DNA of 64,000 bases from an uncultured Fibrobacterota bacterium (GTDB lineage: Bacteria; Fibrobacterota; Chitinivibrionia; Chitinivibrionales; FEN-1185). This document shows, in pieces, positions 24,001 through 30,000 of this stretch. How positions within the stretch are numbered: position 1 is the first letter of the stretch; each line of letters starts with the position of its first letter. The stretch spans positions 120,203 through 184,202 of the forward strand of contig CAVWBU010000015.1 of NCBI GenBank assembly GCA_963753345.1, given 5' to 3'. A program made the position numbers.

Positions 24001-27000
24001 TCCTGGTTCGCTTGTAGAAATTCTCCGTCTCCCTTTCGAGAAAGGCGATGCGCCGCATGGCGCGCGCAAGGCGCAGGTTCGACCGCACAATGCCCACATA
24101 GTCCCACATCACGCTCTGCACCTCGGTGATGTTGTGCGAGAGGAGCACCCATTCTTCGTTGTCAATGGTCCCGCTGTCGTCCCAGGCGGGAATCATGGCG
24201 TGGGGCATAGGCGGGATGGCGCGGACCCTGTCAATCGCTTCGTCGGCCGCTCGCCGCGAGAACACAAGCGCCTCCAGCAGCGAATTCGACGCGAGCCGGT
24301 TGGCGCCGTGGATGCCGGTGCAGGCGACTTCACCGCACGCATACAGGTTGGGTATGGTGCTTTGGCCGTTGGTATCCACCTTGATGCCGCCGCACAGAAA
24401 ATGAGCCGCGGGCACCACGGGAATAAGGTCGCGGGTGATATCGATACCCAACTCTTTGCATCGTGCGTAAATGGTGGGGAAATGCCGCCGCGTCCTTGAG
24501 GCCGGAATGTGCCGTATGTCAAGATAAACGCAGCTGTCGCCCGACTTCTTCAATTCGTTGTCGATGGCCCGGGCAACGATGTCACGTGTTGCAAGAGACC
24601 TCATGGGGTGATACCGGTTCATAAATTCAACGCCGCGCGAATCTTTGAGAACCGCTCCAAATCCCCGCAGGGCCTCGGAAATCAGAAACGAACCGCCGTG
24701 TTCGTGATACAGGGTGGTGGGGTGGAACTGGATGAACTCCATGTTTTCTATTGTTGCGCCGGCCCGATAGGCCATTGCCACGCCGTCTCCCGTGGCGATT
24801 TCTGGATTCGTGGTGTGGAGATACACTCTGCCGCATCCGCCCGTGGTGAAGCAGGTGATTTTTGCCTGCACCGCGAAAATGGCCCTTTGCACCGTGTCGA
24901 GCACATACATGCCGTAACATCGGTTTCTGCCCCGTGAAGACCTGCCGTGGATATGGTGATCGGTTATCAATTCGACGCCGCAATGGTTTTCGTACAGCGT
25001 GATGTTGCGCATGCGGCGCAACTGTTTGATGAGCGATTCCTCAACAGCCCTCCCGGTGCAATCGCGCATGTGAACGATCCGGTTGGCCGAATGCCCACCT
25101 TCGCGGCCGAGGTCAAGGTGGTGCGGAGCGCTGGAGCTTTTGGAGGTTGAAAAATGCGTTCCCCATTCGACAAGTTCTTCGATTCGCTCCGGTGCTTCGC
25201 TCGCCAGGATGCGGACCGCCTCCTGGTTGCACAACCCTGCTCCTGCGACAAGCGTGTCGTGCACATGGCTTTCGATGCTGTCGTTCGGGTCGAGAACGCA
25301 TGCGATGCCGCCCTGCGCATGGTTCGTATTGGACTCACTGTCGGTTTTTTTGGTGATCATTATCACCGATCCCACCCTTGCCGCGCGAATGGCAAAACTG
25401 AGTCCGGCAATGCCGCTTCCGACGATGAGAAAATCGCACGATGTTTTCATGGGGCAGGCGCCGGTCTAGCGGACGGCCGCGCCCGGATGGGGCAGACGCG
25501 CCTTCTGGCCAAGATAGCCGCCGTGGTGGCGAAGGCCGAACTGTTCTTTGGAGAATTTTCTTTTTTCCATGAGGACGAGGGCTAACGCGTCGCCGAGCGC
25601 CATCATGACGGCAGTGGAGGCGGTCGGCGTGAGCCCCAGCGTGCAGGGCTCGGTGATTTCCCCCATGTTGATCACCACGTTGCACAGCGACCGGATGGAT
25701 GAATCGGGGTGCGACGTGATGCCGATGATGGCATGGATGCCGAGGCCCCGGCTCCGTTCGAGCATTTCGATGACCTCGCGGGTCTTGCCGCTGGTGGAAA
25801 ACGCCATGATGACGTCGCCTTTGTCCAGAAGCCCGAGGTCGCCGTGCGCCGATTCACCCGGATGCAGAAAACAGGAAGGCGTGCCCGTGGAACACAGCGT
25901 TCCGGCAATTTTCTGCGCGATGTCGCCGGCTTTTCCCATTCCTGTCGTGACCACTTTGTTTCTGCACCTGAGAAGGATGTCGATGGCCTTGGAGAAGTTC
26001 CCGTCGATTCTGACGTTTTGTATGGCGTCTGCCTCGGCGGCAAGGATCTGGCGGGCCCGTTTCCGAATATCATTCATAGTTGTCAAACCTTTGGTTTCGG
26101 CGTGCAGATTTAAAAGAATACGCCTGCATTCTCATGGCGAGGCGAGGAAGCACCGTACAAATATAAATCACAGGGGAAAAACGGTGCACATGGTATTTGA
26201 GCGGCACCGGGAGCCTGGGGCGGTCTTTCCCGACGGGATTGCAAGCGATGCGCTAGACCAGCGGAATGATTTGCTCTTCTACGCGGGTGACCTTGCTCTT
26301 GAGCTCGGCGTCGGAGAGCAGGTCGGATTCGATTTTCCTGCACGCGTGGATGACGGTGGAATAGTCGCGGCCGCCGAAATCCAACCCGATGGTGCGGAGC
26401 GATTGCTTTGTCCATTTTTTGCATAGATACATGGCAACGGAACGAGGCAGCGAGACGTCCCTTTTGCGGGTATGGGCGGTGAGCTGGTTGGGGCTTGTGC
26501 AGAACACTTCGGCCACTTTTTGCTGGATAAAACTTACCGAGACGCGCTGATCTTTTCGTGAAATCACATCTCCGCAGATTTCTTTCGCCACGTCAAGGGA
26601 GATGTCCTTCCCGGTGAACGATGAAGAAGCGATGAGCTTGATGAGGGTGCCTTCCAGTTCGCGGATGTTGGAAGTTATATGGCCCGCCACATACTGGATG
26701 ACTTCATCGGGGAGGGAAAGGCCGTCCGTTTCCGCCTTCTTGCGGAGGATCGCCATGCGCGTTTCCAAATTGGGCGGCTGGATATCGGCGATGAGACCGC
26801 CCATGAACCTGTTGATAATATGCTCCATCATGTCGGTTATCTTGTCCGGCGAGCGGTCTGAGGAAAGGATGATTTGCTTCTTTTCAAGGAGGAGCCTGTT
26901 GAAAATGCGGAAGAATTCCTTTTGTGTGCCCGGTTTGCCGCCCAGGAAATGGATGTCATCGATGAGCAGGAGGTCGACATCGTTGAATTTCTTGTAGAAT

Positions 27001-30000
27001 GAGGTTGAATCCTTCTTTTCAACAACATAACCGATATATTGCGTGGTGAATTCCTCGCTTGTCATATAAAGCACGTGGTCTGCCGTATTCTCAGTCTGGG
27101 CAAAATGCCCGATGGCTTGAAGAAGATGCGTTTTCCCGAGTCCGGTTCCCCCGTGAATGACAAGGGGATTGAAGGTCGTTCTTCCAGGGGCTTCGGCAAC
27201 CGCCATTGCGGCTGCGTGCGCCATCCTGTTGCCGTCACCCACAATGTACCTATCGAAGATGTAATTAGGGTGAAACTGTCCTTTCTTTTCAACGGATTGA
27301 GGAATTTTCCGCAATTGTGCTTCGGATATCGTCCGGGCAAGCGGCTGCACGATCTTCCAGTCTTTCTCGGTGGGGGAGAATGTGAGGGACTGAAAAGAAA
27401 TCGAACATTCCGGGAGTGCGTTTCTTATTATGCCGGAAAAGTGTTGTTCCATAAAATCCGCAAAAAACTGGTTGGGCACAAGAACGCTGACGTGCCCTTC
27501 GGGAGATATAAAAAGATCGGTTGTACGGAACCACGTTTCGAACGAAGAAGGGGGGATTTTTTTTTGTATTATCCGAAGACACTCCTGCCACAAAGAACTG
27601 GTTGAAATCGCGCAAGATAGGTTGTTCGTCAACATGTTGTCAACATCCAGATATTATTAACTATGCGGTGGGGAAAGAATTGCCGAAATATCTAATCTAG
27701 CTTATTAGTTGACTTTATTATTGATTTGTTATTCATCGTAATGTCAGTGCGTTAGTTGATATTGTCAAATACTGACAGCCGCATCGTTATGGATGCTACA
27801 CCACTTATTAACATGCTCTCAACGAGTTGTCAACAATAAGTTATCAACACTAAATATTTACTTCAGGGCTTCGATAATATAATTACCCTTGTACTTATGT
27901 CAAAGGTTTTTTTTCACCATTCTGTAATCGGAATGTAACAATCCTGTGTCAATTTACTTTTTGAAGAAGCAAGCGTATTTCCCTGTGTGTAAAGTGTTTT
28001 TTCATTGTCAAAACAGCCCAATATCGGGAAGTAAAGCCCCGGTTTCCGCGATGCCCGTAATTGCGGCATTCCTTGCAGGGCGGTTTGACGGGGCGGGAGA
28101 GGCGGTTTGACGCAACGACATTTTACAAACAGAGCGGTTTAGGGACTTGGTAAATGGCGCGGATCGATGGTGCAGGTTCGCAGGCGGTAAGAAAAAAAAA
28201 TAGCAACGTATGAGGATATCGTTTGGATTTTGTTAGAATAGTTCGCCGTGCATGGAGTCCCCAACGTTGAAGATGCAATTTTGTGGGTTTGCTGGAAACA
28301 TTTGATATGCTCGTGTCGGGGTATGATCCCTATTGATTGGCAGTCTGCTTCTTAGGCAGAAAGCGGTACCCGATCCACAGACGGTGGATAAGAAGGCCTG
28401 GATACGTTGTGCTTATTCCAAGATCGTATCCGGCGAAAAGGGGGTTGTCATTCATATGGCGCAATTCCAATCCAGTGTGGATACAGTTTCCAATGTCCGA
28501 AAAGTACCCGAAATCGGTGCTGTATCCCAAAAGGAAACCGAATATCTTGTATATCTTTAGCGAAACCATGGTCTTGAAAACTTCATAGTTGTACCCCGAC
28601 GAGGTATAAAACGACTCCCCTGACTTCAAGGTAAGCGTATATTCCGCCGACCCGTTGAGCAGATCATCAAACAATTTCAATCGAAGTCCTAGCTTTGAGT
28701 TGCCGTCAATATACATTTGCTGCCAAAAAGTGCAGGTGGCCATGGCTGTGGCCGAGATGGAGACACAATTGAAGAAGAATGGTGTGAGGATCCCCAGTCC
28801 TCCTCGCGTGACGAGAAAATTTGATGAACCGCCGTAACCGTCGGGCAACATTTCTGCTCCGATATCAATGAGGATGCCGGCGGAGCCGAACTTTGGGAGG
28901 TTGCCGCCCAGCGCAATTTGGCAGCTGGGATTCGAAAATGTGAATTGGCTGTTATAACTTACGCCGGAAGATGTGGCCTGTCCCGACTGCGGTTCCGACC
29001 GGGGATATTCCTGTACCCATGAGGCCAAATCCTGCGCCGAATCTTCCGAGAAACGGGAACAGATATTTCACCGATGCGAGAGTATACCGGTATCCGAGAG
29101 GAGTGGCGTTGATGGTGTACGCGGAGGGAACGTCTATTTCTCCCGTAAGCGCCGGATTCGCCCACCAACCGCCGGGCGTCCACAGGTTCTCCAAGTACGT
29201 AGTACGCTGGTACAGAAAATAAAGACTGTCGTTTGCGGCCTCGGTGGCGCCCGCAAACAAAGCGCAGATGAGGGATAGCGCGGCAAAGTTTCTGGAAGTG
29301 CAGATCATGGTACTACAGTTTGAGATAGACCTTGAATTGGAGCAGGCGCTGTTGAATCGCTGCGATGGCCGACTGCAACTCCACGAGATGTTTTCCAATG
29401 TCTTCAATATCGTTTTTCCAGAGAATGTTGGCTGGATTCCTGAGGGAGGCGGAGAGCGCGGCAAGCGTGTCCGCGCTCCTGCGCAGCGTTGAGGCGAGCG
29501 CGGTAATTTCTCCGAGCCGCGTCCTGGTGCTTTCGACATATTCCGGCGCCGCGGTTGCCAATGACCTGGTCATGGTCGTCGTTGACTTCACGAATGAGTT
29601 TAGTGACCGTACCTGTGCATCGGCAGTGAAGCCCGCATTCCGCGTCATGCCCAGGACCATTGTTGAAATCGAATCGGCCGAAGATACGGCCTGGTTGACT
29701 TGTGCAACAAAAGATTTCTGCGTACCTGCGCCGTGCGCCAGCGTCTCGCTGACAGCGAGAAAGGTATCGATGACCCCTCGCAGCTGCAGGGCATTGTTGA
29801 GCGCTTCGGAAACGCCGGGATAAAACGTGCCGACAAGAGTATCCCTTACGGGAATGAGCGGCGCGGCGGAATCACCGCAATCGATCAGGATCACTCTGTC
29901 TCCCATCAGGCCTTCGTCCATGTTGACAATAAGATATCCCCGATGGATTGGAATCGGCATAGTGCTCTTGACGGTTACATAGGCACGCATTGTCTTCCCG

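Follow-up and report, generated by a model that had tools for sequence, protein, structure and literature searches.

Opposite decay of AAA+ faces in two paralogous DnaA clades suggests a two-part replication initiator in Fibrobacterota

The window, a 64,000-nucleotide stretch of the genome of an uncultured Fibrobacterota bacterium, carries on its reverse strand a coding sequence of 460 codons, dnaA2 (26253..27635, −), whose product has all four DnaA domains. The assignment is based on the open reading frame, on Pfam matches to DnaA_N, Bac_DnaA and Bac_DnaA_C, and on a TIGR00362 (DnaA) score of 470 bits against a cut-off of 343.9. The best PDB match is Bacillus subtilis DnaA (8BTG, E = 7.7e-110), and the protein is 41% identical to a second DnaA of the same genome, DnaA1, encoded beside rpmH and dnaN on contig C47. 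Domain I (residues 14–74, PF11638; 27414..27596, −) contains an N-x-F motif (N55, F57). The Walker A motif (GGTGLGKT; 27129..27152, −), part of the ATP-pocket side, is invariant in DnaA2, as is R325 of the sensor II helix (NIRELEGTLIK; 26637..26669, −) in 83 of 83 proteins. By alignment to 8BTG, the box VII helix (26790..26834, −) keeps the arginine finger, R276, and has His and Gly at the positions of B. subtilis R260 and W267. The finger face of a self-sufficient initiator is thus incomplete, with R264 kept, His at 260 and Asn at 206. The recognition helix (26346..26369, −) reads RDYSTVIH, Tyr replacing the usual His of RDHSTVIH in the dnaN-linked copy, and RDYST departs from the R/K-D-H-S/T-T signature.

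Upstream of dnaA2 lies a sigma70-type promoter (27874..27903, −; TTGACA and TATATT/TATTAT, 11 of 12 matches), and a TATATT-like −10 element occupies the same place in 35 relatives. Just downstream of the promoter is an array of same-direction DnaA boxes (27805..27849, +; TTATCAACA, TTGTCAACA, CTCTCAACG and TTATTAACA) in steps of 14, 11 and 11 nt. A second group, 204 nt away, sits at the start site (27626..27645, +), with TTGTCAACA between the ribosome-binding site and the ATG and, overlapping the first codons, a weaker box. This genome contains the tandem pair pattern only once. Among families f1, f3–f7 and f9, all 35 dnaA2 upstream regions hold at least two TT(A/G)TC(A/C)ACA sites (112 in total versus 1.1 expected from shuffles), whereas none of 42 dnaA1 upstream regions has any. 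A box immediately before the ATG was found under a strict pattern in 34 of the 35 relatives, and in all 35 boxes overlap the promoter or leader, as expected of an autoregulated promoter. Elsewhere this pattern was detected before dnaA2 in 6/6 cases from f11–f14, 6/9 from f10, 8/21 from f15–f20 and 0/7 from f2; by this pattern the boxes, which an earlier note on this DNA ascribed to a phylum-wide clade, are not themselves phylum-wide. In genus g37 dnaA1, too, is preceded by a box pair. Lying after the promoter and over the start codon, the dnaA2 boxes are placed as for dnaA autorepression, and we infer such a role for them. In the part of the Escherichia coli literature consulted (PMC5835720), boxes likewise lie at the dnaA promoter; unlike that arrangement, the boxes here precede the off-origin copy, the array lies past the promoter with a further box at the start codon, and the rpmH-linked copy has none upstream.

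Two or more DnaA matches were found in 171 of 201 Fibrobacterota genomes and in 141 of the 152 good ones, figures that count matches per genome and not gene copies. A tree that includes an outgroup unites the second copies in a single clade (SH-aLRT 99). A second full-length dnaA in the phylum and a single ancient clade of such copies, both proposed in the earlier note, the clade from a tree rooted at midpoint, are therefore borne out. DnaA1 groups with near non-Fibrobacterota representatives, but too weakly (FastTree support 0.44) to time the duplication relative to other FCB phyla; DnaA2 diverges fast in family f10. No genuine loss of either copy was found, and a 1.6 Mb single-contig genome (G042) retains both. 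Eighteen bins have DnaA2 alone, but dnaN is also absent from 14 and rpmH from 15; we attribute these cases to a missing origin contig and reject them as true losses of dnaA1. The one dnaN with intact upstream DNA among these bins is in G131; this gene is 30% identical to that of the window genome and looks foreign to the bin. The literature searched yielded no study of the Fibrobacterota pair, though the supplements of PMC3080875 and PMC8287927 may list the phylum.

On C47 the GC-skew minimum lies at dnaA1, as the earlier note had stated, and no skew switch was seen in the window or on contig C15. The dnaA1–dnaN spacer contains TT(A/G)TC(C/A)ACA boxes in 36 of 42 cases from f1, f3–f7 and f9 (40 with C, 34 with A); the dnaN-linked copy thus lacks boxes upstream, as had been claimed, but has them directly downstream. 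A box, then CTA-type trios, then an AT-rich run follow one another in 31 of 43 origin spacers, including that of C47, which has the layout of a basal unwinding system at the skew minimum. The region upstream of dnaA2 was rejected as an origin in this genome, having no skew switch and an array flanked by a promoter rather than by conserved trios. In five single-contig genomes (f10, f15–f17), the skew reaches its local minimum beside the parS cluster, and both dnaA genes are hundreds of kb away; this reading covers 80–100 kb around parS in all five and the whole chromosome only in G086 and G044, the skew of G044 being weak and its sampled values turning positive earlier. A box-plus-trio search of five genomes gave background only. 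For annotation, neither dnaA marks the origin in the five single-contig genomes, while in the window's order dnaA1 stands at the origin.

The two clades have decayed in opposite ways. We scored R260 and R264 as the finger face and K157, T158, D214, D215, D248 and R313 as the ATP pocket, in B. subtilis numbering mapped by hand from the 8BTG alignment; the residues are taken from the literature and from standard AAA+ motifs, but the choice was made with the alignments already in view. Counts cover 90 DnaA1, 83 DnaA2 and 69 paired genomes, omitting L116 (third copy, from a 2 kb contig), L138 (read in a corrected frame as L492), L167–L170 (genus g56), and L177 and L178 (truncated at contig ends). 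The finger face is kept in 90/90 DnaA1, in which the pocket is relaxed; the pocket is kept in 83/83 DnaA2, with Walker A and B, sensor I and sensor II all present, and there the finger face is eroded (R264 in 69/83, R260 in 19/83). Four contacts are conceivable between the two proteins, and only that of a DnaA1 finger with a DnaA2 pocket is intact in all 69 paired genomes, the others being intact in 61 (DnaA1–DnaA1), 16 (DnaA2 into DnaA1) and 16 (DnaA2–DnaA2). The finger is lost from 14/83 DnaA2 (7 parsimony changes) and sensor II from 7/90 DnaA1 (3 changes), and no genome shows both losses. By comparison, single-copy outgroup proteins are self-intact in 122/122 cases, and 27 near non-Fibrobacterota representatives have R264, D215, D248 and R313 without exception and R260 in 26. 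The exception is genus g56 (2 genomes, outside the counts): finger and sensor II are missing from its long copy and R260 from its short one. Within f1, f3–f7 and f9, DnaA2 has an altered finger face that is nonetheless well conserved. The base-capture residues N187, R202, E228 and R321 were discarded as a signal of duplication, since near single-copy relatives also show variation at these positions. A complex prediction for the two AAA+ domains with ATP yielded no verdict, with a score of 0.06 and no contact list.

Domain I is retained more often in DnaA2. The Phe of N-x-F is kept in 67/83 DnaA2 versus 43/90 DnaA1, and in 5/5 genomes of genus g6 and 2/2 of g56 the start of DnaA1 is a Met directly ahead of domain III. 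Five such genomes were searched; four have a DnaA_N match on the other copy alone, and one has none at all. Against general profiles, domain I is closer in DnaA2 in 55/69 genomes and domain III in DnaA1 in 64/69. DnaA1 retains the single-strand residues and, in 90/90 cases, H414 and T416 of domain IV. With B. subtilis DnaA and its basal unwinding system (8BTG; PMC10721633, PMC6669920, PMC8287927) the pair shares domain layout, Walker motifs, the I190, K222 and T225 positions, and origin boxes followed by trios. In B. subtilis one protein bears both faces; here DnaA2 has lost R206, H231, R260, W267 and often R264, while the losses from DnaA1 are R249, domain I and sometimes sensor I or II. The ancient clade, the His-to-Tyr change and the boxes of the earlier note are supported, but it missed this opposite decay and the domain I loss of DnaA1, and the decay is a stronger signal than the boxes.

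In the textbook view, bacterial initiation depends on one DnaA forming a homo-oligomer. The opposite decay suggests a two-part initiator rather than this usual single one. To the reading of a polar two-subunit initiator, with DnaA1 at the boxes, DnaA2 at the helicase end and dosage set by feedback on dnaA2, we would give an even chance. After an early duplication the initiator's jobs would have been divided, both proteins forming one polar oligomer at oriC. DnaA1, with its canonical helix, invariant finger face and dispensable domain I, would bind the origin boxes and build the box-proximal part; its arginine finger would dock into the pocket of DnaA2, which would occupy the distal single-stranded end and offer domain I to the helicase. 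The fingers in the structure from B. subtilis (PMC10721633) face away from the boxes, in the direction of the single strand, so that a first protomer needs only a finger face and a last one only a pocket; in E. coli, Phe46 of domain I is a primary helicase-binding site (PMC6127211). Repression through ordinary DnaA boxes, located past the dnaA2 promoter and at the start codon, would keep the dose of DnaA2 in check; either protein may bind these boxes, and the Tyr would do no more than tilt DnaA2 towards A at position 6. A stricter version, an obligate ordered DnaA pair parallel to ORC, with DnaA1 as anchor and finger donor and DnaA2 as filament end, helicase recruiter and timer through feedback on its own gene, we hold tentatively, at somewhat below an even chance. 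The evidence throughout consists of sequence patterns among relatives, and several observations pull the other way. DnaA1 could be a complete initiator in the 61 genomes where it is self-intact; DnaA2 may have kept its pocket for folding or for sensing nucleotides, with no partner involved; its conserved altered finger face is also compatible with a DnaA2 homo-oligomer of its own; DciA, present in 5/5 genomes, leaves no helicase-loading gap to fill; and g37 has its box pair before dnaA1 too, and f2 has no boxes before dnaA2.

An unlikely but serious alternative is that DnaA1 is the sole initiator and DnaA2 a regulator, either a transcription factor at the boxes or a cap that, with a pocket and no working finger, limits the DnaA1 filament. 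The missing fingers and the loss of R260 from 64/83 DnaA2, the mostly self-intact DnaA1, its gene at the origin in the window's order and the fast divergence of DnaA2 in f10 all suit it. It is harder to reconcile with the 7 genomes, in two lineages, whose DnaA1 lacks domains I–II, with the absence of sensor II and sensor I from 7/90 DnaA1, and with the window genome, where the only further tandem-box target looked for was absent.

The reverse assignment would make DnaA2 the principal, autoregulated initiator and DnaA1, co-expressed with the clamp, an Hda-like finger donor triggering ATP hydrolysis by DnaA2; it seems improbable. Boxes of autoregulatory type do belong to dnaA2, whose product keeps pocket and domain I; DnaA1 is strict only in its finger face, sheds domain I and is encoded next to dnaN in the window's order. 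However, the fingerless DnaA2 proteins could not build an ATP filament, and DnaA1 has the recognition-helix His in 90/90 cases, an intact domain IV and the single-strand residues, with no shared clamp-binding motif outside conserved core words.

Very improbable, in our judgement, is the reading implied by the earlier note: a DnaA2 that is specific, unlike DnaA1, for TT(A/G)TCAACA and controls a circuit of its own. Tyr or Phe does replace His in 72/83 DnaA2, although the change is not universal (11/83 read otherwise, and f12–f14 have His), and A stands at position 6 in 72 of the 112 dnaA2-promoter boxes. The remaining 40 have the canonical C, so that the two box groups are real but not specifically TT(A/G)TCAACA; equivalent slots alternate between TTATCAACA and canonical TTATCCACA among genomes (21 C and 14 A in the first slot), and the origin shows the same mix. 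Single-copy DnaAs with Tyr accompany 61 A and 15 C sites in 30 loci, a bias whose direction is shared by 4/4 families, and those with ordinary His freely use TTATCAACA-type sites (147 A versus 162 C in 83 loci); boxes also persist beside the His DnaA2 of f12–f14. Tyr does tilt preference towards A; a new box motif was rejected, and the implied pairing of the changed helix with its own box is weak. Tyr is also found in the sole DnaA of 10/10 outside genomes checked and so is no bar to initiator function.

Plain redundancy, with two full initiators for different conditions and differences due to drift, has the least to recommend it: both copies exceed the DnaA family cut-off in the window genome, and f11 and f15 retain finger and pocket arginines in both, but no true loss of either copy was found and residues invariant in 122/122 single copies decay one way only. 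A DnaC/DnaI-type helicase loader role for DnaA2 was rejected, given DciA in 5/5 genomes and an intact domain IV.

DnaC/DnaI loaders and Hda, themselves related to DnaA, each engage it through a single AAA+ face, which is the pocket in the loader and the finger in Hda; unlike them, both Fibrobacterota proteins keep a full box-binding domain IV, alongside DciA. Archaeal Orc1-1/Orc1-3 heterodimers and eukaryotic ORC place paralogous AAA+ initiators in a fixed order at the origin, but belong to a different family, and no bacterial counterpart was found in the literature searched. PMC10721633 mentions a helicase loader that docks at the end of the DnaA filament. Two full-length dnaA genes per genome are also recorded in Chlamydiae, Desulfovibrio, Pirellula, Salinibacter, Pedobacter and one Fibrobacter, for which the portions consulted of PMC3080875, PMC4989314 and bioRxiv 2025.08.05.668638 give counts or expression and no division of labour. 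If the polar two-subunit reading is true, AAA+ faces and a helicase-binding domain split over two proteins would reveal the job of each protomer, which is now probed solely with engineered chimeras, and a search for opposite decay in Chlamydiae, Desulfovibrio and other bacteria would directly test the reason for their two dnaA genes.

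The window encodes a 460-amino-acid DnaA, recognized by its Pfam domains and the family cut-off (dnaA2, minus strand, 26253-27635). As the earlier note had it, a second DnaA (DnaA1), 41% identical to DnaA2, is encoded at dnaN; its gene lies on contig C47, with rpmH on the other side, and this genome has no further DnaA. The cumulative GC-skew minimum of C47 also falls at dnaA1, as claimed, and the skew of the window's own contig, C15, climbs steadily across the window. Upstream of dnaA2 are a sigma70-type promoter (27903-27874), an array of same-direction boxes (27805-27849) and, 204 nt on from this distal array, a box that sits after the ribosome-binding site and before the ATG, in agreement with the claimed spacing of about 200 nt. 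The neighbours (within 25466-26086 and 28330-30233) are a SIS-domain gene downstream, common only to the genus, and upstream an MlaD gene and two ORFs of 232 and 195 amino acids without Pfam match, perhaps one split gene. At 30 of 83 loci from eight families (e.g. L003:3593-4378, L032:46-954), the divergent neighbour of dnaA2 belongs to the DUF5610 family (Pfam E 1e-4 to 1e-9, above the cut-off in 2/5); no match to this family was found in the window's genome.

By our own count from the match table, which takes in unpublished data (G194), 171 of 201 Fibrobacterota genomes contain at least two DnaA matches, 28 contain one and 2 none; at least two were present in 141/152 good genomes, and both genes in all five single-contig genomes. 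The 18 bins with DnaA2 only lack dnaN in 14 cases and rpmH in 15, indicating a missing origin contig and not a loss of dnaA1. In a tree of 79 proteins including 17 outgroup rows (quick search, without bootstrap), DnaA2 formed a single clade (SH-aLRT 99) and DnaA1 another (82), each roughly mirroring the family pattern. Both the phylum-wide second clade and the presence of two copies in most genomes, proposed earlier, are thereby upheld. When the ordinary-length proteins among the best 150 matches to a DnaA2 profile were placed in a tree, 24 grouped with Fibrobacterota rows within the DnaA2 clade, and no close outside sister of that clade was found among them. Frameshifted DnaA2 pieces at G157:C11:829084-830465, in a long-contig assembly 81% complete, probably reflect sequencing error; a third dnaA copy, on a contig of 2 kb (L116, G170:C108), and a distant dnaN (L481, G131:C56) look like contamination of their bins.

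The residue losses in the two copies fall on opposite faces of the AAA+ domain. We compared 90 DnaA1 and 83 DnaA2 sequences, with B. subtilis residue numbers assigned by hand from the 8BTG alignment and essential interface residues taken from passages of PMC6669920. In the filament, as described in part of PMC10721633, R202 and E228 of one protomer pair with N187 and E183 of the following one, and arginine fingers are directed away from the boxes; an excerpt of PMC6868365 adds that E. coli R227 and L290 help protomer contact. R260, H231 and W267 were placed on the arginine-finger face because they share helices with R264 and E228. On this face DnaA1 retains R260 and R264 in 90/90 sequences and L269 in all; DnaA2 retains R264 in 69/83 and R260 in 19/83, and R206, H231 and W267 are mostly gone (R206 and L269 presumably correspond to E. 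coli R227 and L290). Among alignment positions conserved in at least 90% of outgroup sequences, DnaA2 losses concentrate on the 228-234 and 260-264 helices. The ATP pocket of DnaA2 is complete in 83/83 (K157, T158, D214, D215, D248, R313, G317); in DnaA1, R313 and D248 are missing in 7/90, D215 in 4 and R249 in most. In 27 near relatives outside the phylum, R260 is kept in 26 and R264, F230, D215, D248 and R313 in all; N187, R202, E228 and R321 vary there and were therefore discounted.

Across 69 paired genomes, kin and hence not independent, the set joining the DnaA1 finger to the DnaA2 pocket was the sole one of four contact sets intact in every pair (DnaA1-DnaA1, 61/69; the other two, 16/69 each); all 122 single-copy controls have their own set intact. 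Genus g56 (two genomes, G140 and G176) was left out of these counts, since its rows grouped with one another on long branches, and does not follow the pattern: finger and sensor II are both absent from its long copy. Both g56 copies (L167-L170) are highly diverged; the long one has also lost the recognition-helix signature, and the short one lacks domains I-II. The DnaA1 of family f2 (L161, L162, L165, L156, L158, L159) resembles a pseudo-ATPase: Asn replaces the Walker B Asp and sensors I and II are lost, with box VII intact; dnaA1 there has no dnaN neighbour.

Domain I is present in every DnaA2 except one at a contig end. In 5/5 genomes of genus g6 and 2/2 of g56, the DnaA1 start is a Met immediately preceding domain III; in g56 the assignment as DnaA1 depends on small profile-score margins. 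A genome-wide DnaA_N search of five of these seven genomes gave one match in four, always on the other copy, and no match in the remaining one. The N-x-F motif's Phe, which we take to be the equivalent of E. coli Phe46, occurs in 67/83 DnaA2 versus 43/90 DnaA1. Phe46 is a primary helicase-binding site according to a passage of PMC6127211.

In the known filament, the box-nearest protomer requires domain IV and its finger face; the protomer at the single-stranded end depends on its pocket and is positioned to meet the helicase. DnaA1 suits the former role and DnaA2 the latter. A polar mixed DnaA1/DnaA2 initiator is an even-odds reading. The contact from DnaA1 finger to DnaA2 pocket, whose existence and direction we infer, is itself rather probable and is common to this reading and two others: DnaA2 may be a regulator or cap, a possible but clearly less favoured role, or DnaA1 an Hda-like finger donor, which appears unlikely.

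Box distribution bears on a further alternative. In families f1, f3-f7 and f9, at least two TT(A/G)TC(A/C)ACA sites precede dnaA2 in 35/35 regions (112 sites versus 1.1 expected); none precedes dnaA1 in 42 regions, and the downstream spacer of dnaA1 has boxes in 36/42 (74 versus 0.8 expected). The earlier note was thus right that boxes lie before the second copy and not upstream of the dnaN-linked one, but that copy does have boxes downstream, and the A at position 6 of its TT(A/G)TCAACA is not fixed: promoters have 72 A and 40 C, origins 34 A and 40 C. Nor, by this pattern, are boxes upstream of dnaA2 phylum-wide (f11-f14, 6/6; f10, 6/9; f15-f20, 8/21; f2, 0/7). Individual slots hold A or C depending on the genome, a free exchange which shows that the site is the usual DnaA box, relaxed at its sixth base. 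A separate DnaA2 specificity is improbable, A and C being mixed at promoter and origin alike. In 31/43 dnaA1-dnaN spacers of these families, CTA-type triplets and an AT-rich stretch come after a box, the arrangement of a basal unwinding system in a passage of PMC8287927. E. coli dnaA is autorepressed, according to part of PMC5835720, and the box position at dnaA2 fits the same behaviour; dnaA2 may be repressed through boxes at its own promoter. Three further TT(A/G)TCAACA boxes about 12 kb from the origin, past parAB (G000:C47:168400-168560), could be a titration site. In genus g37 (L128, L130, L135, L176) an inverted TATCAACA box pair flanks the likely dnaA1 promoter.

When species genomes were scanned for the helix G-R-D-Y-S/T-T-V-I-H, at least 119 matches appeared, 80 of which were examined; outside Fibrobacterota, those listed include DnaAs of Bacillota, Spirochaetota and Abditibacteriota, and in a check of such genomes 10/10 had just one DnaA. 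Against family-matched controls (83 His loci, 162 C and 147 A boxes), 30 Tyr loci, which are kin and enriched by the scan, had 15 C and 61 A, with the same direction of shift in 4/4 families. These counts indicate that Tyr tilts box preference towards A and does not create the motif. One spirochaete with a single Tyr-type DnaA (L381, G203) has a downstream run of 12 boxes, TTATGCACA and TTATCAACA, none TTATCCACA.

No dnaA locus in f10 and f15-f20 has dnaN beside it. Five single-contig genomes have their parS cluster at the local skew minimum (weak in G044), distant from both dnaA genes, and origin-like box clusters in G064 (near 1,423,200) and G104 (near 1,300,900) are mainly of C type. In G086:C1 the dnaA genes, at 175 and 446,684, both lie in the terminus half, and parS cluster and skew minimum near 2.20 Mb.

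Redundancy of the two copies is the least probable reading. DnaA2 belongs to the DnaA family, but by its residues it does not qualify as a self-sufficient initiator. Two dnaA genes as such are on record in one Fibrobacter, Chlamydiae, Desulfovibrio and others (passages of PMC3080875, bioRxiv 2025.08.05.668638 and PMC4989314), and our literature search found no account of a phylum-wide Fibrobacterota pair or a division of labour. What would be new here is that phylum-wide pair, with labour apparently divided between the two DnaA copies.
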